From a virus (Duplodnaviria > Heunggongvirae > Uroviricota > Caudoviricetes): DNA of 17,836 nucleotides. Made by a program: the position numbers and the translations under genes. The notes below the pieces were generated by a model, which was given only the letters and a program-made list of their open reading frames with translations, had not been told where the DNA came from and ran no database searches. The stretch is from positions 1-17,836 of the IMG/VR virus record IMGVR_UViG_2554235189_000012, one strand, 5' to 3'. Positions 2,089-17,836 of this stretch are shown piece after piece. Position 1 is the first letter of the stretch, and every line of letters begins with the position of its first letter.

Positions 2089-2099
2089 TGGATTTGCCC

Positions 2100-3811: not shown

Positions 3812-3874
3812 TTTTCGAATCCTCTTTAATATGCATTTTTTGCTATTTCAGTAGTTTACTATTGATGAGGCGTT

Positions 3875-3880: not shown

Positions 3881-3922
3881 CACACTTCATTAATGCAAGC
3901 ATCTTTATGCTATGCTACTAAT

Positions 3923-4204: not shown

Positions 4205-4499
4205 GGTTAACCTCCTGCGGAGTAGCCTTTACAAGCACTGGTGTAAATCCATCTTCATTAAGGTTATGAATATAGACTTCTGTTCTCCTGCGCTCTTCAA
4301 CGTTTAATATTGTTTCTGGATCATAAACCCATACTTTCATTCGACTATTCCATGAAGAAATCGCTTCAGATCTAGTTCGTTTTTCTGGTCCTTGGGCACC
4401 ACATTTGCATGACACATAGCGCATTTTCCCTCTGATACTGAATGAGTATCCGATATTAAGCACAGTGGAACCACAGAATGGGCAGCGATATAGATTCAT
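4197..4499 (-). CDS. Lar-family restriction-alleviation-like protein with C-terminal extension (100 aa)
   Basis: N-terminal CPFCGS...(22 aa)...CKCGAQGP...AISSWNSR matches the Lar-family zinc-ribbon pattern; start overlaps upstream stop (ATGA). Confidence 0.6.
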   Translation of the reverse strand: MNLYRCPFCGSTVLNIGYSFSIRGKMRYVSCKCGAQGPEKRTRSEAISSWNSRMKVWVYDPETILNVEERRRTEVYIHNLNEDGFTPVLVKATPQEVNRG

Positions 4500-5029
4500 A
4501 AATCATCCACCTTAGGCGCAGCTGAGACAGCAACATTCCAGAACTCAGAAAACATATTGTATGCACCAGATAGATTGGAAGTGGCATACCCTCCAAGCTC
4601 ACTTCTAATCTGAACGGCTCTCATCATTTCCGGTGCTAACTCCTTCGGCACCATAACCCAACCATCCGGAGTTACCGGAGAGTTGCCCGACAGCTCGTTC
4701 AACTTGTAAGTTTGGCTTACAGGTTCGGCTTCCAGTTCTGCTATGCGCTTTTTTGCTGCTTCCAGCTCGCCAAGCAGCGCCAAGACGGTAGCTGGATTGG
4801 CTGCGGCGATGAATTCAGCATTGGCCTGCTGTTCCATTTGGAAATCTTCATCGAAACCGCTTTCAGGATGCGCTCCTTCAATTCTGCAAATGGGAATATA
4901 TCCAACAACTTCACGATGAATTAGCGCATCACCAGCATCAAATCTCTCCTCTCCATATTCGAGCGACCACACACCACACGTTGCTTTCTCTGCCTTTTCA
5001 CGCAGTGCCTGATAGTCAATCTTGCTCAT
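4496..5029 (-). CDS. Ead/Ea22-like prophage protein (177 aa)
   Basis: N-terminus MSKIDYQALREKAEKATCGVW resembles the conserved N-terminus of Ead/Ea22-like proteins of lambdoid prophages; typical position between xis and the recombination genes. Confidence 0.5.
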   Translation of the reverse strand: MSKIDYQALREKAEKATCGVWSLEYGEERFDAGDALIHREVVGYIPICRIEGAHPESGFDEDFQMEQQANAEFIAAANPATVLALLGELEAAKKRIAELEAEPVSQTYKLNELSGNSPVTPDGWVMVPKELAPEMMRAVQIRSELGGYATSNLSGAYNMFSEFWNVAVSAAPKVDDL

Positions 5030-5030
5030 G

Positions 5031-5330
5031 TCACATCACCCTGAATCCGTTGCATTTACGTAAAAAATCGCAGATATAGCCCTTCATTTTTTCGTGCCAA
5101 TCTCGATCATTCCCATTGCACCAACCATAAGGTGGAGTCCAGTTTTCTATCAGAGCAGCCATTTTCTTTGCTTTTGCAGGAGTAGCTGTTGCGGTATCGC
5201 AGTAATGACGAGTGTCGATCAACGTATCCATACCATCGATATCAAGTACGCAAAACCATGTGTGATTCGGCATTTCAACAGATGGTATTTGTTGCCCACG
5301 TCGACGTTTATCAATAAGACATACAGTCAT
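5031..5330 (-). CDS. Hypothetical protein (99 aa)
   Basis: ORF with AAGGTGG upstream of ATG; start overlaps upstream stop (ATGA); no family recognised. Confidence 0.5.
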   Translation of the reverse strand: MTVCLIDKRRRGQQIPSVEMPNHTWFCVLDIDGMDTLIDTRHYCDTATATPAKAKKMAALIENWTPPYGWCNGNDRDWHEKMKGYICDFLRKCNGFRVM

Positions 5331-5872
5331 GGTTCCACCTTCTCTATTTGCTTAAGACCGTCTCTCACTGCATTAAGTACGCGTTCCAGATACTGGTATT
5401 TCGGGTTTGGTGCCGTTGGCCAGTCGGCATACCACGGATCATCACCAAAGAGATTCAGCAGTTTGTTACCGACACCGAAACAACAGCAGCTTTCTTTTAC
5501 GTCATCGGCGTTTTCCGCCTCGTCCCACATTTCGCGAGCCTGTACCGCGTCGATTTCTCTCTCTCTTCGTAAATTTATGATTTCTGACTTCACGAAAAGC
5601 AGATTTGCATCGTTGTCATCGTCGACCGTGCTTCGCAGTTGAGGGTCGAAATAGCCGATTAGATACTCGTTGCTGACCCGCTTAATGAACGTCTGCACAT
5701 CATCACCGCCCATAGCAAACCAAGCCGCAGTCCACGCTTTTCCGTAGCAGGTGATGGTGATTCTTCCCTTACCAGGTTCGTAGTTTTCAATCATCACTCG
5801 AACCGGATCTAGTCGCTCTGCACCGGTTATAACGAATGACAACACATCAATCTTTTCAACCGTTACACTCAC
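5327..5872 (-). CDS. Hypothetical protein (~181 aa, GTG start)
   Basis: The ORF track extends this frame to 6064, but that extension overlaps the Lar-like gene at 5856-6092 in another frame; AGGAGG lies 6 nt upstream of an in-frame GTG at 5872, the start preferred here. Start remains uncertain. Confidence 0.45.
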   Translation of the reverse strand: MSVTVEKIDVLSFVITGAERLDPVRVMIENYEPGKGRITITCYGKAWTAAWFAMGGDDVQTFIKRVSNEYLIGYFDPQLRSTVDDDNDANLLFVKSEIINLRREREIDAVQAREMWDEAENADDVKESCCCFGVGNKLLNLFGDDPWYADWPTAPNPKYQYLERVLNAVRDGLKQIEKVEP

Positions 5873-6092
5873 TGGTTGCCTCCTTTGCTCGCTGATTCCA
5901 CTCTGCTCTAACCTCTGAATAAAAAATCGCGCAGTCATTTCCAGGCGCTGCATATTTGCTACCAGATTGAGCGCGACACGTACCGCATCGAACGAAATAG
6001 AATCGACCGCCAGAGCCATATTCAGGGTGATCTGCTTCGCTGGCAACGTGCGCTGCGCCGCCACAGAATGGACATGGTAGTAGGTTGCTCAT
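5856..6092 (-). CDS. Lar-family restriction-alleviation-like protein, second paralog (78 aa)
   Basis: [16 protein letters not shown]...FYFVRCGTCRAQSGSKYA...AEWNQRA matches the Lar zinc-ribbon pattern; GAGGGAG upstream of ATG at 6092; start overlaps upstream stop (ATGA). Confidence 0.55.
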   Translation of the reverse strand: MSNLLPCPFCGGAAHVASEADHPEYGSGGRFYFVRCGTCRAQSGSKYAAPGNDCAIFYSEVRAEWNQRAKEATSECNG

Positions 6093-6565
6093 GAATGCAC
6101 TCCCTCGTGAAGCTGTTCCGCACAATGCAGCAGGGCGTCCGTCGCTTCTTTCACCGTAACGATATCGCCATCGTCCAGCCCGGCAACCGTCGCGTCCTTA
6201 ACGAACACCGAGCAAAGGTCATTAAACGCCTGCGCCCGTACTTCAGCCAGAAAAGCATCGGTAGCTGGAGTTTCAGTAACATCATCTTCCCATTCGCTAA
6301 ACTCCTCACGACAAAAGTCATTAAATTCCTTCTCAGATTGCTTAAGCGATGTATTTTCAGCAGCCATCTTCGCGCATTTAGCCTCAAGGTTATCAATCGT
6401 GATTCCAGCAGAACGACACTCCCGCAACGCAGTTTCCAGTTTTGATTCAAGCTCACCGAACTTACGCACCAGATATTCAGCGTTTGTTTCGTTAACCTTT
6501 AAATCTCGTGGGATGCATTTACCTTTCAGAAAACCATCCATCTCAATTAGTGACATTTGTTTCAT
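6089..6565 (-). CDS. Hypothetical, predicted coiled-coil protein (158 aa)
   Basis: [19 protein letters not shown]...; heptad-like charged repeats; no family recognised. Confidence 0.5.
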
Positions 6566-6726
6566 TTCTTCCCACTCCGCAACATTGCATTCAGATATTT
6601 GTTGTCATTAACAGAACCGAAACTCTTTCTCTTAAGCAATTCCTCTCTCGATGGCATTGGCTTTACGCGTTGGCGAATAATCATTTCTGCCGGAAGAATG
6701 CCGGGATTGTATGCAAGTCCTCTCAT
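6562..6726 (-). CDS. Hypothetical small basic protein (54 aa), below ORF-track size cutoff
   Basis: ATG at 6726 overlaps the stop of the upstream gene (ATGA), and its own TGA overlaps the ATG of the downstream gene; [54 protein letters not shown]; exactly fills the gap between two called genes. Confidence 0.35.
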
Positions 6727-7004
6727 GATTTACTCTCAACGAACTGGTCAATAGCCATGCTAAGTGACATACCTAAAGTTTCGATATGCTGCTGAATATC
6801 CTGTAGCGTCTGCGCCTGAGATAACAGGATTTCACGGTTGCATAACTCTTTAACCAGATGCTCAAACTTGCTGTAATAACCGATACGACTTAGTGTTTCT
6901 TTCCCTGCATTCTCTCCTTCTTTGATAATTCCTCTTTCGCTAAGAATCAGGTCGTGTTTGGTTCCGGTAATAACGTATTTTCCGAGGTCGATGTTTAGCT
7001 TCAT
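6723..7004 (-). CDS. Hypothetical protein (93 aa)
   Basis: ORF with GGAG upstream of ATG at 7004; no family recognised. Confidence 0.5.
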
Positions 7005-7020
7005 TGTTAATTACTCCATG

Positions 7021-7335
7021 TTAATTTATTCGTATGCCTGCTCTTTCTTCATCGAGTTTTTTTAGCTTGTATCGCATAGCTCTTACTGAATAAATTGAGC
7101 GGCAGGTTGCAATTGCTATTTCTTCTGCGGAGAACTTACCGAAAAGTGATACTTCGGCTCTTGTCCATCGTCTTCCACGAAGTCGGCTAACAATGTCAGC
7201 GCCAATCCTTGTTGCTTTCGCCATTACTGCTTTTTCAGTCCTTTCCAGTTTTTCAGCGATAACTTCAACTGGCATTGTCGCCGCTACTTCGCGCAAGAAA
7301 TCGACTTCCCATTTCTCCCATGGAGTCTTTTTCAT
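7021..7335 (-). CDS. Putative DNA-binding protein with two Myb/SANT-like repeats (104 aa)
   Basis: Two tandem ~40-aa segments each with a conserved Trp followed by helix-like A/E/I-rich stretches (WEKWEVDFLREVAATMPVEVIAEKL and RRWTRAEVSLFGKFSAEEIAIATCR); assignment is by pattern only. Confidence 0.4.
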   Translation of the reverse strand: MKKTPWEKWEVDFLREVAATMPVEVIAEKLERTEKAVMAKATRIGADIVSRLRGRRWTRAEVSLFGKFSAEEIAIATCRSIYSVRAMRYKLKKLDEERAGIRIN

Positions 7336-7346
7336 AGGCGATACCG

Positions 7347-7829
7347 TTATTTGATAAGAAGTGAAGGTTTCCCAACCTTGAGTTGAGCGCCTGGGATATT
7401 TATTCCTGCTTTTAGTTGGTGCTTGATTGCCAACTTGTCGGCTTTAATTGTCGTTTCAAACTCAACGTATTCAGGAGGAATGGCGCTTGAGTCGATGATT
7501 TCTACAGTTTCTGACGGTTTGCGGATTGTTACCTGGTGAATACCTGCTCGAATCTTTTTCTTGCCAACCATTTCAAGCGATGACGCTATATATGCCATAA
7601 TGCTATCAATCTTATTTTGAATTACTGCTGCTCGTTCATTCAGTGACTTTGCCTCGTCCTTGAGGCGTTCAGCATAACCAGATTCATTTTTAATAATGGC
7701 AAGAAGTTGCTCTATTTTATCGGTAAATTCTCCTTCCATGCCTTCTATTGTGTCAGCAATCATCTCTGGCTCTAAATCTGAATCCATCAGCTTTGCGTAT
7801 TCATTGGCTATTTCATACAGTTTGCTCAC
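7347..7829 (-). CDS. Mu Gam-like / Gp157-like protein (~160 aa)
   Basis: Directly downstream of recT; N-terminal predicted coiled coil and C-terminal G-x-V-x-I-R-x-P pattern resemble Mu Gam / siphovirus Gp157 family proteins; GTG start at 7829 preferred because GGAGG lies 6 nt upstream. Confidence 0.4.
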   Translation of the reverse strand: MSKLYEIANEYAKLMDSDLEPEMIADTIEGMEGEFTDKIEQLLAIIKNESGYAERLKDEAKSLNERAAVIQNKIDSIMAYIASSLEMVGKKKIRAGIHQVTIRKPSETVEIIDSSAIPPEYVEFETTIKADKLAIKHQLKAGINIPGAQLKVGKPSLLIK

Positions 7830-8724
7830 TGGCAACCTCCAGTTTCGCTTTGCATTCTATGTAAATGGCTTGTACGTTCTGCTGCAATTTCATTCCAGAT
7901 GTCAGGCGATATGCTTCTGCAAAATATCGCTTCAAATCATCCATGTTTTCTGCCTGAGCCATTTCATCGCAAAGAAGTTGTGCTTTATCCATTATTTCCT
8001 GCTGGCGTTTCCGTTCATCTTCGCGGATATCTTCCTCTGATTTGTGCGGCATAACTGGTTCAGTCCATACACCTTCTTCTTCGTTTAGTACGTGAATAGC
8101 ACTATCAAGACGTGATGCCTTAGGCCAATACTTGCTTGCACGCTTTACGACCGTCTTTCGCGCCATCTCATTCCAGTGATTTACCCATGGTCCTTTATCG
8201 CTGAATGCCGCCTTGCTTGTTTTCCTTACAGCCTCAATTTCAGCCAGACTCATCTCTTCCGTTAGATAATCACCTGCTGGCGTCTTAACTGTGCAGTAAA
8301 CGCCAACGATATCACCACGATCACCGAAGGCGTTGTATTTATGGGTTGGTGCTTTATCAAGCCCGTTTGACTCATAGGTATCGTTAGCATGAACAAGTTT
8401 TGCCTGACCCCATGAGATAACACCAGACTCCATTGCAATATGGAGCAATCCCATATAACTGATATCAAGGCACACCATGCCGTCGCGCGGAACCAGATAA
8501 GCCAGTTTGCTAGCCGGGTTTAAGGTGATGCCGATCGCCGCAACATTGATGATGGCGTTCTGTGCGCTGGTTGGATTTGCCAGTGCCGTTTTAGCCAGGT
8601 AATCATTTTTCTGGAAATACTGAATTGCAAACTGGCTTTCCTTAGCCCATGTCACCGTCTGTTCAGTCAATGCTCCGCAGAATAACTGCTCCTGCTGTTT
8701 AACGAATTCAACGATATTGCTCAT
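7813..8724 (-). CDS. recT: RecT-family single-strand annealing recombinase
   Basis: 303-aa ORF; motif GPWVNHWNEMARKTVVKRASKYWP closely parallels GPWVTHWEEMAKKTAIRRLFKYLP of E. coli RecT; GGAG RBS; position matches bet of lambda. Confidence 0.8.
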   Translation of the reverse strand: MSNIVEFVKQQEQLFCGALTEQTVTWAKESQFAIQYFQKNDYLAKTALANPTSAQNAIINVAAIGITLNPASKLAYLVPRDGMVCLDISYMGLLHIAMESGVISWGQAKLVHANDTYESNGLDKAPTHKYNAFGDRGDIVGVYCTVKTPAGDYLTEEMSLAEIEAVRKTSKAAFSDKGPWVNHWNEMARKTVVKRASKYWPKASRLDSAIHVLNEEEGVWTEPVMPHKSEEDIREDERKRQQEIMDKAQLLCDEMAQAENMDDLKRYFAEAYRLTSGMKLQQNVQAIYIECKAKLEVASEQTV

Positions 8725-9032
8725 GCTGCTTCTCCATAAATGTGTCTGCGTTTGAATATTGCGAAGGCATATTCAGCCTTAACTCTTTCGGTTATTGCAT
8801 CCCAGAACCATTCAGCGGCTTTTTCCTGATAGTCACAGTCATCATCTTCCAGCCAGTCGATAGCGTCCTTAGTGTGTTCATCTGGTTTATATGAGCGAAG
8901 CATTTCGCTTATTGGGTCGCAACGTTTGCAGAGGCGATCAACTTCACTGTTGATTCGTTCGTAATCATCATCAGTAAAACTTGCGATGATTTGCGATATT
9001 TCACGCTTATCATTCAGAGTCAGAATCATCAT
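8721..9032 (-). CDS. Hypothetical acidic protein (103 aa) at the gam/abc position
   Basis: ORF with AGGAGAAAG upstream of ATG; Asp/Glu-rich; lies between kil and recT where lambda has gam and P22 has abc1/abc2; function not assignable from sequence. Confidence 0.5.
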   Translation of the reverse strand: MMILTLNDKREISQIIASFTDDDYERINSEVDRLCKRCDPISEMLRSYKPDEHTKDAIDWLEDDDCDYQEKAAEWFWDAITERVKAEYAFAIFKRRHIYGEAA

Positions 9033-9113
9033 CTTTCTCCTGTTCTTTGTGCTGATTGAGCATTTCTTTCATCTGACGAATGAATTCTTCGTCTGACCAG
9101 TTATCTGTAAAAC

Positions 9114-9266
9114 TCATTTCCTGCGATACCACGGAAGGTTGATAGCTGATTTCATCGCTTTATTTGCTTCAAGCCACATTTTTGAATCACCAATAAATCT
9201 GGCTATTACTGCTTTGTTCTGTGCAGCACGAAGCATCTGGTGATTAATGGCTATTTCATTGCGCAT
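9114..9266 (-). CDS. kil: Kil-like host cell-division inhibitor (50 aa), below ORF-track size cutoff
   Basis: MRNEIAINHQMLRAAQNKAVIARFIGDSKMWLEANKAMKSAINLPWYRRK shares the IA-FIGD-KM-EA pattern I recall from lambda Kil; immediately downstream of cIII as in lambda; GAGG RBS 7 nt upstream. Confidence 0.45.
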   Translation of the reverse strand: MRNEIAINHQMLRAAQNKAVIARFIGDSKMWLEANKAMKSAINLPWYRRK

Positions 9267-9376
9267 AATAAGACCTCAACTCTTTTCCATCCGTCACGTA
9301 ATTTACGGGTGATTCGTTCAAGTAAAGATTCGGAAGGGCAGCCAGCAACAGGCCACCCTGCAATGGCATATTGCAT
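9251..9376 (-). CDS. cIII: CIII-like regulator (inhibitor of FtsH-mediated CII degradation)
   Basis: MQYAIAGWPVAGCPSESLLERITRKLRDGWKR matches the lambda CIII N-terminal region as I recall it; AAGGAG RBS; the ORF-track entry 9251-9478 includes a non-coding upstream extension. Confidence 0.8.
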   Translation of the reverse strand: MQYAIAGWPVAGCPSESLLERITRKLRDGWKRVEVLLCAMK

Positions 9377-9436
9377 GGTGTGCTCCTTATTTATACATAA
9401 CGAAAAACGCCTCTCGTGAAGCGTTATTGGTATGCA

Positions 9437-9463
9437 TATAAAAAGGCCCTCACACTGGAGGGC
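9437..9463 (-). terminator. Intrinsic terminator on minus strand (stem GCCCTC/GAGGGC, 6-nt loop, then CTTTTTAT) upstream of cIII
   Basis: GC-rich 6-bp hairpin followed by a U-run on the minus strand; analogous in position to a tL terminator that would need N antitermination for read-through. Confidence 0.55.
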
Positions 9464-9599
9464 AAAGAAGATTTCCAATAATCAGAACAAGTCGGCTCCT
9501 GTTTAGTTACGAGCGACATTGCTCCGTGTATTCACTCGTTGGAATGAATACACAGTGCAGTGTTTATTCTGTTGTTTATGCCAAAAATAAAGGCCACTA

Positions 9600-9851
9600 T
9601 CAGGCAGCTTTGTTGTAAATGTTGCAGGTATCAAGTAAGTAATTAGATGGAGCGCCATAAATTATGAATTCATCGTTTGTCTGGTCCATCTCCATCTCTT
9701 GGCCTATTGCCATTCTTGCGTCAGTGTCATCAGCGGCGAAGCATAAAACAGCCCACGCACCCATTGTTTTAAAAAGAACTGCAATTGGCTGTGGTTTTAC
9801 TGAATTTGCGTTAGCGCGAAAATCACAAATCGCACTTTCATGAAATTCCAT
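9600..9851 (-). CDS. Hypothetical protein (83 aa)
   Basis: ORF MEFHESAICDFRANANSVKPQPIAVLF...; preceded by the conserved 26-nt leader and a GAGGTGA RBS. Confidence 0.5.
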   Translation of the reverse strand: MEFHESAICDFRANANSVKPQPIAVLFKTMGAWAVLCFAADDTDARMAIGQEMEMDQTNDEFIIYGAPSNYLLDTCNIYNKAA

Positions 9852-9858
9852 ATCTCAC

Positions 9859-9884
9859 CTCAAATAATTGGTTTGCTGCCAAAA
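9859..9884 (-). promoter_or_regulatory. Conserved 26-nt 5' leader element, copy 1 (minus strand TTTTGGCAGCAAACCAATTATTTGAG)
   Basis: 25/26 identical to a second copy at 10096-10121; both end 7 nt upstream of an ATG start codon. Confidence 0.4.
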
Positions 9885-9893
9885 GAAAACCGA

Positions 9894-10088
9894 CTATGCG
9901 TCCTGTCGTTTTTCCGACGCTCTATTCATTTCCTGCCAGATGGCAACTACAGCATCTTCAATATTTCTTTCCTTCAGATCCCATAAATCCCACAGGCCTG
10001 GCATCTCATGACCAAGTTCATCTAAAAGTTTTTTTGCTCCAGCCTGAATCACGTTCTCACTCAGTTGAATCTCTGTTGTTGATTTCAT
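9894..10088 (-). CDS. Hypothetical protein (64 aa; alternative start at 10154 would give 86 aa)
   Basis: ATG at 10088 is preceded by GAGAGGA and the conserved leader; the upstream in-frame ATG at 10154 overlaps the previous stop (ATGA) and cannot be excluded. Confidence 0.45.
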   Translation of the reverse strand: MKSTTEIQLSENVIQAGAKKLLDELGHEMPGLWDLWDLKERNIEDAVVAIWQEMNRASEKRQDA

Positions 10089-10095
10089 AATTCCT

Positions 10096-10121
10096 CTCAA
10101 ATAAGTGGTTTGCTGCCAAAA
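10096..10121 (-). promoter_or_regulatory. Conserved 26-nt 5' leader element, copy 2 (minus strand TTTTGGCAGCAAACCACTTATTTGAG)
   Basis: See copy 1 at 9859-9884. Confidence 0.4.
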
Positions 10122-10150
10122 CAATGAACCATCCGGAAATTCCAGATAGT

Positions 10151-10375
10151 TCATAATTCACTCTTCAATACTTCCAACTTACTAATCGCCGATAGATATC
10201 CGCGCTGATAGGGCATCATCATTCCTTCGAGCTTGCCACTTCTTAACTCCTCCCTGAGCAATTGTATTGCTTGATCAATAACCTCTGCCTTAGCGTCCTT
10301 TATGGCTTGCTTGCGGGGCTTTGCTTTCTGCTTTGGCAGATTTCTCAAGCATGATGGAATGTATGTCTGATTCAT
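10151..10375 (-). CDS. Hypothetical basic protein (74 aa) immediately downstream of N
   Basis: ATG 3 nt after the N stop codon, GAGG upstream; Lys/Arg-rich; no family recognised. Confidence 0.5.
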   Translation of the reverse strand: MNQTYIPSCLRNLPKQKAKPRKQAIKDAKAEVIDQAIQLLREELRSGKLEGMMMPYQRGYLSAISKLEVLKSEL

Positions 10376-10378
10376 CAC

Positions 10379-10651
10379 TTACCTCGCTGTCAGTTGTTTT
10401 GATTTCCGGTAGCCTGCCGCGTAAAGAGCTACGTTTGGCAGGCAAATACTTCCACTGCATTCATCTGCCTTCTTGCAGCGAAGGCCTCCGAGTGATGCTG
10501 CTTTATCTGCTCTGACGCAACCAGAGAGCTTTAGCGCAATTTTTCGCGCCAGTCGCTGCTCTTGCATTGCCTGTTCACGTTGAGCCTGTCTGCGTGCTCT
10601 GCGGCGATTTCTGGCGTTATCGTCAGCCAGATATGTAATGACTACTGCCAT
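10379..10651 (-). CDS. N: N-like transcription antitermination protein with arginine-rich motif
   Basis: 90-aa ORF with GGAGG RBS; Arg-rich N-terminus (NARNRRRARRQAQREQ); central and C-terminal segments (ARKIALKLSGCVRADKAASLG..., VALYAAGYRKSKQLTAR) resemble phage 21 and P22 N proteins as recalled; lies downstream of pL/nutL. Confidence 0.75.
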   Translation of the reverse strand: MAVVITYLADDNARNRRRARRQAQREQAMQEQRLARKIALKLSGCVRADKAASLGGLRCKKADECSGSICLPNVALYAAGYRKSKQLTAR

Positions 10652-10758
10652 GTTGACCTCCGATGATTGACTTTGGCGGTGACGCGCCGGGTGCTTATCT
10701 TCCGGTTGCCGTCGTGCAGCTGCACTTCACGTCACCCCAAAGCCAACTACTCTTTGGT

Positions 10759-10799
10759 TCCCGCATTTCGGCGGGACAATCCCATCAATGTTAAAGAGC
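10759..10799 (-). promoter_or_regulatory. nutL-like site: boxA GCTCTTTAAC plus boxB hairpin TCCCGCCGAAATGCGGGA (minus strand)
   Basis: The same boxA and boxB sequences occur on the plus strand between cro and cII (nutR); each lies downstream of its promoter. Confidence 0.55.
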
Positions 10800-10845
10800 C
10801 TGCCAATCTGTTCCGTTTGGCTACCAGCGTCCTGCTGATGGCTAA

Positions 10846-10874
10846 AGAATACTGTAGGTATTTTATTGTGTAAA
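10846..10874 (-). promoter_or_regulatory. Candidate pL promoter (-35 TTTACA, 17-nt spacer, -10 TATTCT) overlapping operators
   Basis: Hexamers read on the minus strand overlap two AATAC-N5-GTATT operators; the same -10 hexamer and operator arrangement occur at pR. Confidence 0.4.
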
Positions 10875-10932
10875 TACCCAAGGTATTTATTTTTGATGAA
10901 ATAATGATAAGCAAATGAATACAAAGGATATT
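10848..10932. promoter_or_regulatory. oL operator region: three AATAC-N5-GTATT-type sites (10848-10862, 10873-10887, 10918-10932)
   Basis: AATACTGTAGGTATT, AATACCCAAGGTATT (part of a perfect 17-bp palindrome AAATACCCAAGGTATTT), AATACAAAGGATATT; same half-site as the oR sites. Confidence 0.55.
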
Positions 10933-11018
10933 TATTTTTTCGGTGTCTGCTTGTTCAGTGCTTTTTATGCGGGATATGTGAAGTGGATCCCGATAGCTAT
11001 TGCTGCCGGGATTATAGG

Positions 11019-11387
11019 TTAGTCAGCGAAGGTTAAGACGAGAATTACCTTAATGATGTCTGCTACAACAGACACGGCCATAGATAAACCAAAGACGATC
11101 CAAGCCACAGTGATGTCTTCACTACCATCGTATAGAGTTCCGTAATCACTGGTGTAAGGCGTAAATGTCGCGCCTTGATACAATAGGTATAAGCTTGATC
11201 CATAGAGGATAAATGCAGATATCCCTTGTATTGCTATGATCACCAGAATCATGAAACGAGCTGATCTATGCGCCCAAGCCTGGCTTATTTTTTCTGATAG
11301 AGATTTCGCAATAAAAGTATGCGCTAAGCCGTAAATTGTCGAGATTGCCAACATCCCAAAAAAGCTTGCTATAGCGGTTCCAACCAT
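11019..11387 (-). CDS. Small integral membrane protein (~122 aa, three predicted TM helices) downstream of cI
   Basis: ORF begins 18 nt after the cI stop with AAGGGG upstream of ATG at 11387 (the ORF track starts it at a TTG inside the cI stop); three hydrophobic segments; occupies the position of rexAB in lambda. Confidence 0.6.
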   Translation of the reverse strand: MVGTAIASFFGMLAISTIYGLAHTFIAKSLSEKISQAWAHRSARFMILVIIAIQGISAFILYGSSLYLLYQGATFTPYTSDYGTLYDGSEDITVAWIVFGLSMAVSVVADIIKVILVLTFAD

Positions 11388-11404
11388 AATCGCCCCTTGC
11401 GTGA

Positions 11405-12121
11405 TCAAACCAGCCTTAGTTTTGTCTCAATTGCAACGCCTATAATCTTGCAGTTTCCATTGATTGGCACGAGAGGCCATGCAGGATTAAGTCCCTTGAG
11501 GTATTTATTTCCGCCGTCGATTATCAGCTTCTTGAATGTTGCTTCGTTAGAGTCAGAAAGTTTTGCTATGACCAAGCTGCCGTTGATCGCCTCCCTTCCG
11601 GTATCGAAAAGAACGAATGTTCCCTCTGGAATACTTAACCCAACCGGTGCCGTCATTGAATCACCTTCCACTTTAAGCCAGAACGCATTACCTTGAATAT
11701 GCGCGTCAGACTCAAGCCAAACATCTATGTCTTTAATGGTGTATGGTTCGCATGCTTCACACCACGAGCCAGCCTGGATACTGCTTAACACCGGATACCT
11801 CTTTCCTGCTCTGTATTCCCCTGCATACCTTACGTTGGCATCGCTCTTAAGGCTTTCTGCCTGTTCTGCAACCTTGGCAGCAATTGACTGGCTAAAATCA
11901 GCAATTGAGACTTGCAACAAACGTGCAAAACCAGATGCGACCTCAACGTTTAGCGCGTTTCTGCCATTAAGATAATGCCCTACCGCTCCTTGGGTGATAC
12001 CCAGTTCATCAGCGATTGAGTATTGGGTTATTCCCAATTCTTTCTTTTTTGACTCATACAAAGCCTTAAGCCGCTTAGCGTCTTCGAGCTGTTCTGTCGT
12101 CAGTGATTTTTTATTTTCCAT
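11405..12121 (-). CDS. cI: CI-type prophage repressor (HTH_XRE N-terminal domain plus LexA/S24-like C-terminal domain)
   Basis: 238-aa ORF; N-terminus TEQLEDAKRLKALYESKKKELGITQYSIADELG parallels lambda CI; C-terminal FWLKVEGDSMTAP matches the S24 autocleavage domain; divergent from cro with operators between. Confidence 0.9.
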   Translation of the reverse strand: MENKKSLTTEQLEDAKRLKALYESKKKELGITQYSIADELGITQGAVGHYLNGRNALNVEVASGFARLLQVSIADFSQSIAAKVAEQAESLKSDANVRYAGEYRAGKRYPVLSSIQAGSWCEACEPYTIKDIDVWLESDAHIQGNAFWLKVEGDSMTAPVGLSIPEGTFVLFDTGREAINGSLVIAKLSDSNEATFKKLIIDGGNKYLKGLNPAWPLVPINGNCKIIGVAIETKLRLV

Positions 12122-12156
12122 AGCTTAATTCTAATAGCTAAGGTACTTAAACTAAA

Positions 12157-12196
12157 AATACCCTGAGTATTGATTGCTTTGAATACCTGTAGTATT
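12157..12196. promoter_or_regulatory. oR operator region: two AATAC-N5-GTATT sites (12157-12171, 12182-12196)
   Basis: AATACCCTGAGTATT and AATACCTGTAGTATT, 10 bp apart, between cI and cro; a third site nearer cI could not be defined. Confidence 0.55.
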
Positions 12197-12198
12197 CT
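12170..12198 (+). promoter_or_regulatory. Candidate pR promoter (-35 TTGATT, 17-nt spacer, -10 TATTCT)
   Basis: Hexamers overlap the two oR sites; cro ATG about 30 nt downstream. Confidence 0.4.
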
Positions 12199-12227
12199 TT
12201 GTTCATGGTTAATAACGGAGAGTGCAT

Positions 12228-12422
12228 ATGATTCGAATGACACTTGCCGATTACGCCAAAATCCATGGACAGGCTAAAGCAGCCAGTGACTTTGGTGTAA
12301 TCCAGTGCGCTATCAGCAAGGCCATTCTGGCAGGCCGTAACATTATGGTTACGGTAAAGCCTGATGGCAGTGTGATTGGAGAGGAAGTTCGTCCTTTCCC
12401 AAGCAACAAGAAAAACAAATAG
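12228..12422 (+). CDS. cro: Cro-like repressor
   Basis: 64-aa [65 protein letters not shown], homologous in pattern to lambda Cro; GGAG RBS; the ORF track starts it at an upstream GTG. Confidence 0.8.
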
Positions 12423-12429
12423 TAACACC

Positions 12430-12473
12430 GCTCTTTAACAGTCATGGTCCTCATTCCCGCCGAAATGCGGGAA
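12430..12473 (+). promoter_or_regulatory. nutR-like site: boxA GCTCTTTAAC plus boxB hairpin TTCCCGCCGAAATGCGGGAA
   Basis: 7-bp stem and 6-nt loop hairpin 14 nt after boxA, between cro and cII; boxB core identical to nutL. Confidence 0.55.
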
Positions 12474-12530
12474 TACAACGCGCATAAGTTGATGCGCATA
12501 ACTTCTTATTTGTTAAGGAAATACTTACAT

Positions 12531-12824
12531 ATGGTTCGTGCAAACAAACGCAACGAGGCTCTACGAATCGAGAGTGCGTTGCTTAACAAAATCGCAATGC
12601 TTGGAACTGAGAAGACAGCGGAAGCTGTGGGAGTTGATAAGTCGCAGATCAGCAGGTGGAAGAGGGACTGGATTCCAAAGTTCTCAATGCTGCTTGCTGT
12701 TCTTGAATGGGGCGTCGTTGACGACGATATGGCTCGATTGGCACGACAAGTTGCTTCGATTCTCACCAATAAAAAACGCCCGGCGGCAACCGAGCGTTCT
12801 GAACAAATCCAGATGGAATTCTGA
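12531..12824 (+). CDS. cII: CII transcriptional activator (lambda-type)
   Basis: 97-aa product [51 protein letters not shown]... is, as far as I can recall, essentially identical to lambda CII; upstream RBS region also lambda-like. Confidence 0.9.
12540..12553 (-). promoter_or_regulatory. CII-binding TTGC-N6-TTGC repeat of a pRE-type promoter (minus strand)
   Basis: Minus strand reads TTGCGTTTGTTTGC inside the 5' end of cII, as in lambda pRE. Confidence 0.5.
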
Positions 12825-12846
12825 GGTCATTACTGGATCTATCAAC
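12770..12846 (-). ncRNA. oop: Possible oop-like antisense RNA (terminator hairpin within 3' end of cII; promoter only partly conserved)
   Basis: Lambda-like sequence at the cII 3' end includes a GC-rich hairpin followed by TTTTTTATTGG on the minus strand; a CATAAT -10 is retained but the -35 region differs because the downstream sequence is not lambda-like. Extent inferred by analogy. Confidence 0.3.
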
Positions 12847-12856
12847 AGGAGTAATT

Positions 12857-13002
12857 ATGACAAAACAACTCAGTCCTTACCAGGACAAAATTCACAAACA
12901 CATACTACGTGATCGCTTCCTGTCCAGCTTCAAGCAGCCTGGTCGATTCAGGGCTGAGTTGGAAAAAGTGAAGCTGATGCAGAAGGAGAAAGGTCATGAG
13001 TA
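12857..13002 (+). CDS. Hypothetical 48-aa protein between cII and the O-like gene (reminiscent of P22 orf48 by position and size)
   Basis: AGGAG 6 nt upstream of ATG at 12857; [48 protein letters not shown]; stop overlaps the O-like start; its RBS and first codons coincide with where lambda O would start. Confidence 0.4.
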
Positions 13003-13856
13003 ATATTGCAACCGTAACACATTTAAGGCCTTCACAACGGCCTGTGGAGCGTCGTGTGGCAGAAGTTGAAGATGGTTATACCCGTCTTGCAAATGCCCTG
13101 TATGAAGAGCTTATCGGCGCTGATTTAACGAAAAATCAGAGCAAGGTTGCCCACGCCATATGCCGTAAAACATACGGCTACGGTAAAAAGATGGATCGCA
13201 TCTCTGATAGTCAGTTAGCTCAAATTACCAGGCTGCCAAGACAGAAGGTAAACAAGGCCAAGAATGAGCTTATCGCGATGAAGGTTATCCTTCGCGAAGG
13301 CCAGCAAATCGGGCCTAACAAGAACATCGAAGAATGGCAAATCGAAGGGTGTCACTACTCTGGTGATAATGTCACCGCATTGGTGACAAAAAGTGTCACC
13401 AAAACGGTGACAGCGCTGTCACCAAAACAGGGACACACAAAAGAAACTATTACAAAAGAAAAAAGAAATAATAAAAACACTATGTCCGAAAGTGTTCGGA
13501 CGGAGTGTGAAAAATCACCTGACCGTCACGAAGAAACCGACAAGGCATTCGAGGAAATATTCTGGTGTGCAGGCATGCGGAAAGCCGGGAAGAAAAACGC
13601 AGCTTCGGCATTCAGAACACAGTTCAGGGAATGGCGTAAAACTACCAGGGGTACGGCAAGCGAGTTTGCCACGATGCTGGCAGAAGACATCGCATGCAGG
13701 AATGGTAAGCAGTTCGGATTCGACAGGTTGTTACCATCGAGCTACCTGAACGGTCAGCGCTGGAACGACGAAAAGCCAGAAACCATTCAACCACAATCCA
13801 AACCATCATCCGCAATCACCGTATCGAAAACTGGCTACGTGTTTTTCGACAGGTGA
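12996..13856 (+). CDS. Replication initiator, lambda O-like N-terminal domain with a heterologous C-terminal domain
   Basis: 286-aa ORF with AAGGAG RBS; N-terminal region ([56 protein letters not shown]...GPNKNIEEW) parallels lambda O; internal iteron array and AT-rich tract; C-terminus unlike lambda O. Confidence 0.8.
13349..13480. repeat. Putative replication origin: four TGTCACC-N4-7-GGTGACA-type iterons followed by an A-rich tract
   Basis: Four ~20-bp-spaced dyad repeats inside the O-like gene, then GGGACACACAAAAGAAACTATTACAAAAGAAAAAAGAAATAATAAAAAC, closely resembling the lambda ori layout. Confidence 0.6.
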
Positions 13857-13859
13857 ACC

Positions 13860-13967
13860 ATGAAATCAAAAATCAAATCGCTACTGGTCGCTGGTTATAA
13901 CCACGGCTGGTTAAGTATTTCGTTTGTCGATTTCTGGTTTAAAAATCTCAATCTGAGGGAATCATGA
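13860..13967 (+). CDS. Possible 35-aa coupling ORF between O-like and primase-helicase genes
   Basis: ATG 4 nt after the O-like stop with AGGTGA upstream; MKSKIKSLLVAGYNHGWLSISFVDFWFKNLNLRES; its stop overlaps the helicase ATG (ATGA). Could equally be non-coding. Confidence 0.25.
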   Translation: MKSKIKSLLVAGYNHGWLSISFVDFWFKNLNLRES

Positions 13968-15844
13968 GGCCAAGTGAACTCAGCGACCTGCTTTGGGCGC
14001 AGGTTGACAGGGTGGCTCCGCACCTGTTGCCAAACGGCAAGAAAGATGGGCATGAGTGGGTTGCCGGTAACGTCAACGGTGACAAGGGAAACAGCCTTAA
14101 GGTCAACCTTAGCGGCAAGAAAAAATGGGCTGATTTCGCTGAGGGAGACGGCGGTGACATGCTTGATTTGTGGATGGCATGTCGTGGAATTAACCTGCAT
14201 CAGGCTATGCAGGAAGCGAAAGCCTTTCTCGGTATCAAGGATGACGATCACCATTTCGATGCCAAACGTGAGAAGAAATTCTCCAGACCTGATCGCAAGA
14301 AAATCGCCCGCTACGTTACCAGAACAGAATCCCATCTTGAGTACCTGCAATCGCGTGGCATATCGCCAGAAGTCGTAAAGCGCTACGAAGTTGTCAGCGG
14401 CAAGGTGTGGAATGGAGAACGAGAACTTGATGCACTGGTGCTTCCGTACAAACGCGATGGTGAGTTGTTGCAGGTCAAGCGAATCAGCACTGAGCGACCG
14501 GACGGGAAGAAAGTCATTATGGCAGAAGGTGATTGCGAACCTTGTCTGTTCGGATGGCAGGCTCTGGACGCTGGCGTGAGGGCGGTTGTACTTTGCGAAG
14601 GCGAAATTGATTGTATGAGCTATGCGCAATACGGCATCTCGGCGTTATCCGTGCCGTTTGGTGGCGGGAAAGGCGCTAAGCAACAGTGGATTGAGTTTGA
14701 GTATCACAACCTCGACAGGTTTGAGGAAATATTCATCTCGATGGACGTTGATGATGTTGGTCGTGAAGCCGCAAGGGAAATCGCAAGCCGACTCGGTGAA
14801 CATCGTTGCCGTCTTGTTACTCTGCCGTACAAAGACATCAACGAATGCCTGATGAACGGTGTTACCGAGGATGAAATCTGGCAGTACATCGGCACGGCAT
14901 CCTACTTCGATCCTGAAGAACTCTACAGCGCGCGAGAGTTTTACCAGGACACTATCAACGCTTTCTACGGCAAGCAGCAGTATCTGTTTAATCCACCGTG
15001 GGAATCTCTGGCAGATAAATTCCAGTTCCGTGAGGCCGAGTTGACGCTGGTCAATGGTGTGAACGGTCACGGAAAAACGGAGGTTGTCGGGCATATGGCA
15101 CTTGAGGCAATGCGTCAGGGTGTGAAGACGTGCATCGCGTCACTTGAGCTGAAGCCTGGTATTCTCCTTAAGCGCCTTACCCGTCAGGCAACGTGCTGCA
15201 AGATGCCGCCAGTGCTGGAAATTGACTCTGCATTTAAATTTTATGACGAAAGACTTTGGGTGTTTGGCCTGACCGGAACGGCGAAAGCCGACAGGCTGAT
15301 CGAAATATTCGACTACGCTCGCCGCCGATACGGGATCCAGTTATTCATCATCGACAGCCTGATGAAATGTGGCATAGGCGACGATGACTATAACGGGCAG
15401 AAGGCGTTTGTTGACTTGATTTGCGACTTCAAAAACAAAACAAACTCCCACGTCATTCTCGTTACTCACTCGCGAAAAGGAGACAGCGAAGAAAAACCAA
15501 CCGGGAAAATGGACGTAAAAGGCTCTGGAGCGATAACAGACCTGACAGACAACCTTTTCATCATCTGGCGTAACAAGGCTCGCGAGAGAGCGTTACAGAG
15601 AGTTCAGAGTGGTGAAAAGATGTCAGAGAAGGACGAACAGCTACTGGCATCTCCGGCATCTGTTTTGATGCTTGAAAAACAACGTAACGGCGAAGGTTGG
15701 GAAGGTGGTGTCCCGTTGTTCCTTGACGAGCAATCGCACCAGTTCCTGCAACTTGAATCAGGATCGCCTTATAGCTACATCGCCAATATGCCGAAATCGG
15801 AATATGACGAGGCGTGGCGACAGGAAAACGTGACGGAGTATTAA
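13964..15844 (+). CDS. Bifunctional DNA primase/helicase (TOPRIM domain plus P-loop SF4-type helicase)
   Basis: 626-aa ORF; TOPRIM-like motifs (VVLCEGEIDCMS, FISMDVDD); Walker A NGVNGHGKTEV and Walker B-like LFIIDSLMK; occupies the position of lambda P / P22 gene 12. Confidence 0.8.
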   Translation: MRPSELSDLLWAQVDRVAPHLLPNGKKDGHEWVAGNVNGDKGNSLKVNLSGKKKWADFAEGDGGDMLDLWMACRGINLHQAMQEAKAFLGIKDDDHHFDAKREKKFSRPDRKKIARYVTRTESHLEYLQSRGISPEVVKRYEVVSGKVWNGERELDALVLPYKRDGELLQVKRISTERPDGKKVIMAEGDCEPCLFGWQALDAGVRAVVLCEGEIDCMSYAQYGISALSVPFGGGKGAKQQWIEFEYHNLDRFEEIFISMDVDDVGREAAREIASRLGEHRCRLVTLPYKDINECLMNGVTEDEIWQYIGTASYFDPEELYSAREFYQDTINAFYGKQQYLFNPPWESLADKFQFREAELTLVNGVNGHGKTEVVGHMALEAMRQGVKTCIASLELKPGILLKRLTRQATCCKMPPVLEIDSAFKFYDERLWVFGLTGTAKADRLIEIFDYARRRYGIQLFIIDSLMKCGIGDDDYNGQKAFVDLICDFKNKTNSHVILVTHSRKGDSEEKPTGKMDVKGSGAITDLTDNLFIIWRNKARERALQRVQSGEKMSEKDEQLLASPASVLMLEKQRNGEGWEGGVPLFLDEQSHQFLQLESGSPYSYIANMPKSEYDEAWRQENVTEY

Positions 15845-15873
15845 ATGACCATCTACATTACTGAGCTAATAAC

Positions 15874-15906
15874 AGGCCTGCTGGTAATCGCAGGCCTTTT
15901 TATTTG
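15874..15906 (+). terminator. Intrinsic terminator (8-bp stem AGGCCTGC/GCAGGCCT, 8-nt loop, then TTTTATTTG), tR2-like
   Basis: Read directly; immediately downstream of the primase-helicase gene. Confidence 0.55.
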
Positions 15907-15932
15907 CATCAGAAACAGAGTGAGGTGAGAGC

Positions 15933-16121
15933 ATGAGTAACAGCGAATATATGTTTTACGCAATCATCGACGATGAAGATCGGCTTGTTTCAGTAGCGCA
16001 TGAAAAATACGGTGAAGTTAAGGCGGTATTCCGCACTAAAGAGGATGCTCAGCGAGCTATTGATTTACAAGATGATGAGAACGGTCTCCGCATAAGAAAA
16101 TGTGAAATCGTACAGGCCTAA
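15933..16121 (+). CDS. Hypothetical protein (62 aa)
   Basis: ORF with GAGGTGAGAG upstream of ATG; acidic; no family recognised. Confidence 0.5.
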   Translation: MSNSEYMFYAIIDDEDRLVSVAHEKYGEVKAVFRTKEDAQRAIDLQDDENGLRIRKCEIVQA

Positions 16122-16146
16122 CACCCCAGCACACTAATGGAGAGAA

Positions 16147-16347
16147 ATGATGACAACGATTGGTGTTCTTTACGACGGGTGGACAAAAGAACGATTAAGA
16201 CGTCATTACAAGATGGCAAAAGTTATCCGCAACAAGCCCTATCGCAATGACTATCGAAAGGTGATGGCAAATAACATGCAGAAGAATATCGACAGGATAT
16301 TCCCGCGCGGAAAGGCTGTGTGGCGCTTACTTAAAAATGAGTGGTGA
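16147..16347 (+). CDS. Hypothetical basic protein (66 aa)
   Basis: ORF with GGAGAG upstream of tandem ATG codons; Lys/Arg-rich. Confidence 0.5.
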   Translation: MMTTIGVLYDGWTKERLRRHYKMAKVIRNKPYRNDYRKVMANNMQKNIDRIFPRGKAVWRLLKNEW

Positions 16348-16358
16348 TGGAGAGGAAT

Positions 16359-16673
16359 ATGGACGAATCAAGAAAGCAGTTTGAGGAATACGTTGCCAAA
16401 AAATTGAAATTACCATTCGAGATGATAACCGAGGCAAGAAATGGTGATAGGTACTTCGCATTTTCAAGCATGGATATTCGTCACTCCTTAAATGAGTGGT
16501 GGACTTTATGGCAGGCATCGCGAGCAGCTATTGAAATAACCGCGCCAAAGTTTATCGACAGCAGAGAAGCATTATCCAAAGGGTTTACTGTTGATTATTC
16601 CAATGGCTTCGGCGATGGAATGGATGCTTATGAGGAAAACATCCGCGCCGTTGGAGTCAAAGTGAAGGAGTGA
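16359..16673 (+). CDS. Hypothetical protein (104 aa)
   Basis: ATG at 16359 preceded by GGAGAGG at 4-nt spacing (the ORF track begins at an upstream GTG); no family recognised. Confidence 0.5.
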   Translation: MDESRKQFEEYVAKKLKLPFEMITEARNGDRYFAFSSMDIRHSLNEWWTLWQASRAAIEITAPKFIDSREALSKGFTVDYSNGFGDGMDAYEENIRAVGVKVKE

Positions 16674-16675
16674 CG

Positions 16676-17086
16676 ATGAAGCAAACAATCTTCCTCCGTG
16701 GTAAACAACAACAGCAAGCCGCAATCAACGCCATCCTCGCAACACCACTCGATAAAGACAAGCCAGTTACCATCCGCATTACTGACTACAAGCGCAACCT
16801 TGACCAGAACGCAAAATTTCACGCGATGCTGGCGGATATCGCTCGTCAGGTTCAATGGTGCGGCAAATGGTTAAAACCAGAACAATGGAAGGTTTTGTTG
16901 ATCAGCGGTCATGCAGTGGCAACAAAACAGGAAGCTGATGTTTTACCCGGGCTTGAAGGCGAATACGTCAACATTCGCGAAAGCAGCGCGCAGATGAGCG
17001 TGAAGCGTATGGCAAGTCTGATCGAGTACACAACAGCCTGGGCTATTGGTCAGGGTGTCAGATTTACCGACAGGAGGTACGAATGA
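16676..17086 (+). CDS. ninB: NinB-like recombination protein
   Basis: 136-aa ORF with GGAG RBS; [53 protein letters not shown] parallels lambda NinB (HQQNAIHAVQQILPDPTKPIVVTIQERNRSLDQNRKLWACLGDVSRQVEWHGRWL) as recalled. Confidence 0.7.
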
Positions 17087-17265
17087 GACGACAGCGACGA
17101 AATATCACCGACATCATCTGCGAAAACTGCAAATACCTTCCAACGAAACGCTCAAGAAATAAACGCAAGCCAATCCCAAAAGAATCTGACGTAAAAACCT
17201 TCAATTACACGGCTCACCTGTGGGATATCCGGTGGCTTAGAGAACGTGCGAGGAAAACAAGGTGA
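17083..17265 (+). CDS. ninE: NinE-like small basic protein (60 aa)
   Basis: AGGAGG RBS; start overlaps the ninB stop; size, position and sequence resemble lambda NinE as I recall it; could be a different small nin-region protein. Confidence 0.5.
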
Positions 17266-17432
17266 TTGACCCAAATCGAAGTTACGAACAACAAAGCGTC
17301 GAGCGGGCTTTAACGTGCGCTAACTGCGGTCAGAAGCTGCATGTGCTGGAAGTTCACGTGTGCTCCGATTGCTGCGCAGAACTGATGAGCGATCCGAATA
17401 GCTCAATGTACGAGGAAGAAGACGATGAGTGA
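17262..17432 (+). CDS. ninF: NinF-like small cysteine-rich protein (56 aa), below ORF-track size cutoff
   Basis: GTG start overlapping the upstream stop; [56 protein letters not shown] with CxxC...CxxxCC motifs; resembles lambda NinF as recalled. Confidence 0.5.
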
Positions 17433-17563
17433 TGTTAAAGAAAAAGATATCCCCGGCTTTGAGGGTATATATAAAGTAACTGAAAATGGAGACATCATTT
17501 CATGCCGTAAATCAAAAAAATTATCTCATGGCATTAAACCAGGAGGATATGCATTTGTCGGTC
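17425..17563 (+). pseudogene. HNH/NUMOD4-type homing-endonuclease-like gene, 5' fragment truncated by the IS629-like element
   Basis: ATG at 17425; [47 protein letters not shown]; the IPGFEGIYKVTENGDI pattern is typical of the NUMOD4 motif of phage HNH endonucleases; the frame runs directly into the IS terminal repeat at 17564. Confidence 0.45.
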
Positions 17564-17836
17564 TGAACCGCCCCGGGAATCCTGGAGACTAAACTCCCTG
17601 AGAAAGAGGTAAACAGGATGACTAAAAATACACGTTTTTCCCCCGAGGTCCGTCAACGGGCAGTTCGTATGGTTCTGGAAAGTCAGGGCGAATATGACTC
17701 ACAATGGGCGGCAATTTGTTCCATTGCCCCAAAGATTGGCTGTACACCAGAGACTCTGCGTGTGTGGGTTCGTCAGCATGAGCGGGATACCGGGAGTGGT
17801 GATGATGGACTCACCACCGCTGAACGTCAGCGTCTG
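17564..17836 (+). mobile_element. IS3-family insertion sequence, IS629/IS1203-like, left end and start of orfA (continues beyond window)
   Basis: Begins TGAACCGCCCCGGGAATCCTGGAGACTAAACTCCCTGAG, matching the IS629 terminal repeat as recalled; orfA start follows. Confidence 0.8.
17618..17836 (+). CDS. IS629-like OrfA (HTH transposase N-terminal protein), 5' partial in window
   Basis: GAGG RBS then ATG at 17618; [59 protein letters not shown]...; no stop before the window end, so absent from the ORF track. Confidence 0.8.

Follow-up and report, generated by a model that had tools for sequence, protein, structure and literature searches.

Which parts of a lambdoid early-right region are exchanged as units, and where do the seams between them lie? 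We examined this question in IMG/VR virus record IMGVR_UViG_2554235189_000012 (Duplodnaviria; Heunggongvirae; Uroviricota; Caudoviricetes), positions 1 to 17,836; this whole stretch of 17,836 nucleotides is called the window below. An earlier inspection of the letters without database searches (the sequence-only reading) had described the segment 12531-15844 as a mosaic, in which a lambda-identical cII and pRE were joined to a 48-residue open reading frame (ORF), an O-like initiator and a primase-helicase. Our analysis indicated that this region is very probably the early-right segment (lysogeny establishment and replication) of a lambdoid Escherichia coli prophage, composed of three exchangeable cassettes with short conserved sequences as joints, and that it follows the standard lambdoid scheme with one substitution. 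The first cassette would be an HK620-type immunity region with cI, cro and nutR. The second would carry a lambda-type cII, the promoter pRE on which CII acts, and the antisense oop RNA. The third would hold replication genes of the ES18/mEp043/Sf101 type ('O2/P2' or Eru5-related type of Stx phages), namely orf48, the O-like initiator, orf35 and the primase-helicase.

The DNA identities followed this division. To the left of 12533 the window was of HK620/mEpX2 type (99.2-99.6% identity), and the stretch 10700-12530, with cI, a small ORF, cro and nutR, was 99.2-99.6% identical to mEpX2, HK620 and HK630. A gap-free comparison with lambda revealed a lambda-like block at 12514-12864 with 7 mismatches in 351 positions, and the similarity collapsed on both sides of it. 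From 12832 to 15906 the DNA was of mEp043/Sf101 type (98.7-98.8%). BLAST against lambda returned window 12307-12864 as one block of 83.6% overall identity, the left end of which fell inside cro. The proposed mosaic was thus borne out, and the sharpness of its breakpoints was confirmed by the mismatch positions and a four-way alignment. Colinearity with one known phage had been named as an argument against a mosaic, and it was found in part: phage vB_EcoP-720R6 is colinear with the window over 12514-15906. The mosaic therefore holds relative to lambda, and the combination is not new.

The left junction is the 20-bp sequence TAAGGAAATACTTACATATG at 12514-12533, placed by the four-way alignment and the mismatch positions. 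It is common to HK620 and lambda and, according to the HK620 annotation, holds the cII ribosome-binding site and the -10/start region of pRE. In the four-way alignment the window equalled HK620 up to the cII ATG (12533) and equalled lambda from 12514, so the left crossover lies within these 20 bp. HK620 itself continues past this joint into a P22-c1-like cII.

The right junction is a 33-nucleotide sequence, ACTGGATCTATCAACAGGAGTAATTATGACAAA, at 12832-12864, which comprises pO and the 5' end of oop (alignments; PMC3349717). Lambda has this sequence with 1 mismatch and P22 with 3 mismatches, and mEp043/Sf101 share it as well. Identity to lambda stopped at 12864, which is lambda base 38693, and identity to P22, mEp043 and Sf101 started at 12832. 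The divergence from lambda just past the O start, noted from the letters alone, was located 8 nucleotides into the ORF (ATGACAAA, 12857-12864). The pO/oop 5' sequence has been aligned across 23 lambdoid phages and is conserved (Hayes et al. 2012, PMC3349717). A laboratory lambda/P22 hybrid diverges from lambda at base 38694, with orf48-18-12 replacing O-P (PMC3349717); like the window, this lambda(18,12)P22 hybrid has the lambda cII/oop segment joined to orf48. Base 38694 corresponds to window position 12865. Because the lambda identity of the window ends at 38693 and the hybrid diverges at 38694, the natural right joint is the same crossover as in the classical hybrid. At the far edge of the replication genes, a 62-bp block (15845-15906, plus strand) matched the intergenic region between lambda ren and ninB at 100% identity and the P22 ninA region at 90%. 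It contains an intrinsic terminator hairpin at 15874-15897 and represents another conserved junction. A 62-residue ORF after this block (15933-16121) had no PHROG match.

The middle cassette starts with cII (12531-12824, plus strand), which matched Pfam PF05269 Phage_CII with an E-value of 1.7e-48 over profile positions 1-91 of 91. The protein shared 96 of its 97 residues with lambda CII, the sole change being A76S. The gene differed at 6 of 294 nucleotides. The description of cII and its ribosome-binding site as lambda-identical was thus slightly overstated for the gene, while the DNA block 12514-12631 was indeed identical to lambda. A motif search found the TTGC-N6-TTGC site of CII intact on the minus strand (TTGCGTTTGTTTGC at 12540-12553). 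This box flanks the -35 region of the lambda-identical pRE promoter (12515-12554, minus strand; span transferred from the HK620 annotation), which overlaps the 5' end of cII and is directed leftward, antisense through cro and into cI. As had been proposed, it points at a non-lambda cI of HK620/mEpX2 type. Bound to the box, which lies in the 5' coding part of cII itself, CII would activate transcription leftward via cro into the HK620-type cI, a step for which no match between CII and the repressor would be required. As CII would act on a promoter borne by its own cassette, any downstream repressor could be established, which would explain the free combination of the cII cassette.

The oop RNA was placed at 12770-12846 on the minus strand, its 5' end by homology to lambda, from which it differs by one mismatch (PMC3349717). 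A terminator scan located its intrinsic terminator stem at 12773-12800. The 79-nucleotide stretch 12846-12768 (minus strand), which includes this terminator, folded with -28.5 kcal/mol and a z value of -4.7. An Rfam scan of the window returned no family covering oop, and its only match was the cIII thermosensor.

The one substitution concerns the replication genes. In place of lambda P, the window encodes a 626-residue protein (13964-15844, plus strand) that we identified as a T7 gp4-like primase-helicase with a Toprim domain and an SF4 helicase domain. Pfam gave Toprim_2 with an E-value of 1.8e-12, with matches to AAA_25 and DnaB_C below the Pfam cut-off, and PHROG gave phrog_239 'DNA primase/helicase' with an E-value of 1e-170. 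Residues 192-539 aligned with the T7 gp4 structures (PDB 5ikn/6n7i/1q57; E 2e-23) and with Twinkle (E 1e-13). The acidic Toprim residues of T7 gp4 were conserved (EGEID, DVDD and KD), as were the SF4 features Walker A (GHGKT), Walker B (IIDS) and the equivalent of His465 (THSRK). The Pfam result and the T7 gp4 alignment confirmed the earlier suggestion of a TOPRIM plus SF4 helicase at this place. Like the T7 gp4/Twinkle family, the protein has Toprim followed by an SF4 RecA-type helicase, with about 350 residues aligned and the catalytic residues conserved. Unlike T7 gp4, it has no Cys4 zinc ribbon, carries about 60 extra C-terminal residues, and works with an origin-binding initiator in a temperate phage. 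The position of T7 'DLRGSG' was considered as an Arg finger replaced by Lys and was rejected, as it turned out to be residue 487. EKQRNGEG, the likely equivalent of the Arg finger, falls beyond the stretch aligned by HMMER, and nothing is claimed for it.

The N-terminus of this protein bears on whether it primes at all. Residues 26-143 resembled the zinc-binding region of DnaG (TIGR01391). However, a Cys4 ribbon is impossible, because the first 100 residues contain a single Cys (residue 73), and the Pfam search found no zinc-finger family in the protein (no zf-CHC2, and no Pfam match at all in residues 1-199). The protein might therefore be a replicative helicase only, the zinc-binding domain having lost its metal ligands as in metazoan Twinkle, with priming left to host DnaG. 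The presence of Twinkle among its structural relatives by sequence is in keeping with this idea. Yet the Toprim catalytic residues are all conserved relative to T7 gp4, a DnaG-like N-terminal region is still detected by TIGR01391, and this region is kept in relatives down to 68% full-length identity. We consider the helicase-only explanation possible, though rather unlikely, and retain the assignment as a primase-helicase.

The O-like initiator that precedes it (12996-13856, plus strand) has three parts: a winged helix at the N-terminus (Phage_rep_O), a disordered linker whose coding sequence holds the origin, and a helical domain at the C-terminus (about residues 176-266). Residues 20-114 matched Pfam PF04492 Phage_rep_O (E 1.2e-37), and TIGR01610 scored 105 bits against a cut-off of 45.5. 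Over residues 1-157 the protein was 49% identical to lambda O and 45% identical to P22 gp18, and BLASTP aligned nothing of either protein past residue 157. A comparison of its C-terminus with those of lambda O and P22 gp18 by hhalign gave probabilities below 1%, with low power since one side was a single sequence. The C-terminal half is thus unrelated to lambda O by these searches, as the sequence-only reading had it. The domain is not 'new', as was also said there, having been on record since ES18. The protein does not belong to lambda O proper, which would call for a C-terminal domain homologous to that of lambda O and for a P gene downstream; here the downstream gene is the primase-helicase. 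In an AlphaFold2 model built with 85 sequences, the winged helix was followed by a linker that is disordered where the iterons are encoded, and then by a helical C-terminal domain with pLDDT above 90 for residues 181-260.

As in other O-type initiators, the origin lies within the initiator gene, with four iterons followed by an AT-rich region. The iterons (13350-13435, plus strand) are imperfect palindromes with the consensus TGTCACCAAAACGGTGACA, and start at 13350, 13370, 13394 and 13417. The lambda record gives exactly this spacing of 20/24/23 bp for the lambda iterons, and in the alignment the iterons of the window were in register with the lambda, P22 and ES18 origins. The following feature (13436-13508, plus strand) consists of an A-rich DNA-unwinding region at 13436-13479, with a GC content of 0.27 and near-identity to lambda, and an inverted repeat at 13477-13508. 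Lambda has the same order of four iterons at 20/24/23 bp, a near-identical A-rich region and then a palindrome. The N-terminal winged helix would bind the four iterons inside its own gene, and the adjacent A-rich region would then melt.

The two halves of the initiator were inherited with different partners. The N-terminal domain and the iterons co-varied as a unit: both are of lambda type in ES18, both are of another type in the window, and phage Stx2a_F403 has an HTH_36 domain. The C-terminal domain travelled with the primase-helicase, and the switch point was the conserved A-rich region. Thus ES18, with its lambda-type N-terminus and iterons, and Stx2a_F403, with its HTH_36 N-terminus, both have the same C-terminal domain directly after the A-rich region, and the same primase-helicase. 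Among 44 related loci with initiators 44-88% identical to that of the window, the next large gene was a primase-helicase homologue in 41, and none had lambda P or P22 gp12 as the neighbour; nor did the related loci yield any homologue of lambda P. On the analogy of lambda O and P, these observations fit a C-terminal domain that recruits the phage helicase. The phage would then supply its own hexameric helicase, which is T7 gp4-like and has a Toprim primase domain, in place of the host DnaB that is delivered by lambda P, and replication would be independent of host DnaB, DnaC and DnaG.

The C-terminal domain comprises about 90 residues, is helical, and has the conserved core AFExFW-AGMRK ... 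QFGFD-L-P--YLNG-RW-DE. It has no Pfam model. Searches of a library clustered at 50% yielded 367 representatives at E <=0.001, in which the domain was joined to at least five kinds of N-terminus (HTH_36, Phage_rep_O, DUF1376, DnaD_N and Lin1244_N). Fold searches found nothing significant for the domain, and the whole-protein model found only MarR-like winged helices, which match the N-terminal domain. Joined to such varied N-termini and found beside at least three kinds of helicase or loader, the C-terminal domain is a general initiator module; its partner specificity, if any, is set at a finer scale. A docking module specific to primase-helicases was considered as well. This held in the close relatives (41 of 44) and was rejected at the family level by the mixed neighbours of the distant homologues. 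Separately, a protein of 6594 residues (P0126) matched the C-terminal domain in 10 separate stretches, which could reflect a protein made of repeats or an error in assembly or gene calling.

Several points weigh against the arrangement of functions proposed here. Distant homologues of the C-terminal domain adjoin DnaC/IstB-like loaders in six loci, a lambda-P-like protein in one and primase-helicases in two. Owing to these mixed partners, the docking role of the domain is an analogy with lambda O only. Without a Cys4 zinc ribbon, the primase activity or the template recognition of the 626-residue protein may, to judge from its sequence, differ from those of T7 gp4. No experiments on this replication type were found in the searchable literature, and for the non-lambda 'Eru' types the replication proteins are stated to be wholly uncharacterized (PMC8951638). 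On this evidence the C-terminal domain might instead be a general module for replisome assembly or origin melting, with orf48 and orf35 as accessory factors that would load a zinc-finger-less, gp4-type primase-helicase at a lambda-type origin; we regard this as unlikely.

The two small genes of the cassette deserve attention in this respect. The first, orf48 (12857-13003, plus strand; homologue of P22 orf48 and HK620 hkaW), lies between oop and the O-like gene, and its stop overlaps the start of the latter. It matched Pfam DUF2740 (E 8.9e-29) and was 85% identical in amino acids to P22 orf48, which occupies the same position in P22. In the 80 related loci, it was 92-100% identical in all 76 that reach the whole gene. 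The 48-residue ORF had been taken as a product of the divergence from lambda, and this view was not upheld: it is a conserved gene, which lambda naturally lacks (PMC3349717). RefSeq and PHROG (phrog_1913) call the family, with its members in the window and in the P22, mEp043 and Sf101 records, a 'tail protein'. Such a label is implausible for a gene of 48 residues that lies in the early operon, with oop on one side and the initiator on the other, and looks like a propagated mis-annotation.

The second, orf35 (13860-13967, plus strand), was missed in the sequence-only reading. It is the homologue of ES18 gp60 according to the ES18 annotation and a match to phrog_21848 (E 4e-26). Its stop overlaps the start of the primase-helicase gene (ATGA), and its length of 35 residues is kept in relatives in which the primase-helicase is just 74-78% identical. 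Two relatives, L134 and L164 (about 5858-5943), lack orf35 and have a slightly longer primase-helicase of 639 residues; whether orf35 is dispensable or fused there could be tested with these two. In five other relatives (L012 4501-4995; also L015, L029, L033 and L075), a 164-residue ORF is inserted between orf35 and the primase-helicase, and the loci are otherwise near-identical. Judged by eye, the insert looks like a homing endonuclease of the HNH/NUMOD type. Within the window, a 55-residue ORF at 17425-17592 (plus strand; containing IPGFEGIYKVTENGDIIS) resembles the N-terminus of the L012 endonuclease. This ORF of the nin region may represent a homing-endonuclease gene in truncated form.

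Since both small genes are conserved and both overlap the start of the gene that follows, one of the two might take the part assigned here to the C-terminal domain of the initiator, and act as the adaptor or loader of the primase-helicase at the origin. The several kinds of partner found with the C-terminal domain would be compatible with this. However, orf48 is present in P22 and HK620 too, phages with DnaB-like helicases, and is therefore not tied to the primase-helicase, and orf35 is absent from L134 and L164. An adaptor role for either gene seems improbable to us, and recruitment through the C-terminal domain of the initiator is still the preferred explanation.

Many phages and genomes with this arrangement have already been sequenced and annotated, and its breakpoints fall at junctions described in the literature, so nothing in it is new. 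From cI through the primase-helicase (11400-15910), at least 80% was found in one place in at least 12 complete E. coli genomes, and in five of them as a single piece at 98.8-99.2%. RefSeq annotates the series as LexA family, Cro, lambda phage CII family, DUF2740, replication protein and toprim domain-containing protein. The prophages in complete E. coli genomes (e.g. strain C41, NZ_CP127252) also have the HK620-type cI and cro, with about 99% identity over 11400-15906. The isolated phage vB_EcoP-720R6 (ON470605) has cII-orf48-O-orf35-primase/helicase at 98.6% over the colinear part, with the same six genes annotated. It differs from the window in its cI and cro, and in a lambda-like block that reaches further left through a lambda-type nutR.

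That the joints are assembly chimeras, or that the module is a decayed, non-functional remnant and the mosaic has no biological meaning, is extremely improbable. Nothing beyond the prophage nature of the window speaks specifically for it. The same joints recur in complete genomes and in viral contigs that are independent of each other, and 12514-15906 is present in an isolated phage. Each of the six ORFs is intact, with no frameshifts or stop codons seen in the module genes relative to phage isolates, and the origin repeats and terminators are kept.

Reassortment at the left joint was counted in 80 IMG/VR loci with >=98% identity in the initiator C-terminus. The exact cI, cro and cII of the window occurred in three of these, with an identical protein set. 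Of the loci with HK620-type cI/cro on the same replication cassette, 3 had the lambda-type cII and 10 had a cII of P22-c1 type. The lambda-type cII, present in 20 loci, was combined with at least five classes of cI repressor.

Among the known lambdoid phages, Salmonella phage ES18 is similar to the window in gp58-gp61 (as are epsilon34 and g341c), which comprise a small ORF, an O-like initiator with an internal origin, the 35-residue gp60 and the 626-residue gp61. The last is annotated as 'putative primase/helicase; similar to T7 gene 4', and ES18 DNA was 88% identical from 13423 on. The presence of ES18-type replication genes in epsilon34 has been described (PMC2629481). ES18 differs in its lambda-type initiator N-terminal domain and iterons, its HK97 gene 53-like small ORF and its P22 c1-like cII (PMC2629481). 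Lambda shares cII, pRE and oop at 98% and the N-terminal domain of the initiator at 49%. It differs in the absence of orf48, in its iteron sequences, in the unrelated C-terminus of O, and in P, which delivers host DnaB (PMC3349717). P22, with the order c1-orf48-18-12, was 82% identical in DNA over 12832-13100; it differs from the window in the C-terminus of gp18 and in the partner gp12, a DnaB-like helicase without a primase domain.

The Stx phages of the 'O2/P2' type (Phi24B, Min27) or Eru5 type (Stx2a_F403) had 97% DNA identity to 13472-15906, with the same initiator C-terminal domain and primase-helicase (PMC3430580, PMC8951638). Stx2a_F403 is the reference phage for 'Eru5' (PMC8951638). 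The initiator of this type has an HTH_36 N-terminus, whereas that of the window has Phage_rep_O, and the window does not belong to the type itself. A further difference is the LAGLIDADG intein in the P-loop of the Stx-type primase-helicase, which is 968 residues long. The P protein of Phi24B consists of Toprim and gp4 helicase, with an intein (PMC3430580). In Stx2a_F403 (L085, 2996-5902) and in L150, L156, L157 and L159, Pfam placed a Hint plus LAGLIDADG intein at the Walker A region.

The immunity cassette to the left contains cI (11405-12121, minus strand), which has Pfam HTH_3 and Peptidase_S24 domains and is of HK620/mEpX2 type by DNA identity and by the HK620 annotation. The gene cro (12222-12422, plus strand) is of HK620 type and belongs to the lambda Cro family (Pfam Cro, E 3.6e-26); RefSeq starts it at the ATG at 12228. 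The view that both genes are heterologous to lambda was correct for cI. For cro it was correct in specificity and not in ancestry, in view of the Pfam family and of the BLAST block to lambda that starts inside the gene. The nutR site (12429-12474, plus strand; coordinates transferred from the HK620 annotation), with boxA CGCTCTTTA and a boxB hairpin, was identical to HK620 in the alignment and is not of lambda type. Further left, Rfam Lambda_thermo (the cIII thermoregulator) scored 88.5 bits at 9331-9389 (minus strand), inside an ORF at 9251-9478 (minus strand). We take the opening of the cIII ORF there to be the lambda CIII N-terminus, with a divergent sequence after it. This ORF ends at 41 residues, and the HK620 record notes a shortened cIII. 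At the left end, window 1-1248 (plus strand) matched the MFS sugar transporter gene (cscB) of E. coli genomes; the window therefore begins in chromosomal DNA beside the prophage.

Taken together, the region carries little weight as a discovery, and is a clean textbook example of lambdoid modular exchange, with the crossovers mapped to conserved regulatory sequences of 20 bp and 33 bp. The cassette of cII, pRE and oop moves independently of the immunity and replication cassettes. The replication type joined to it here is widespread in phages of E. coli, Shigella and Salmonella, and occurs in a variant form in the Stx2 phages of O157:H7.

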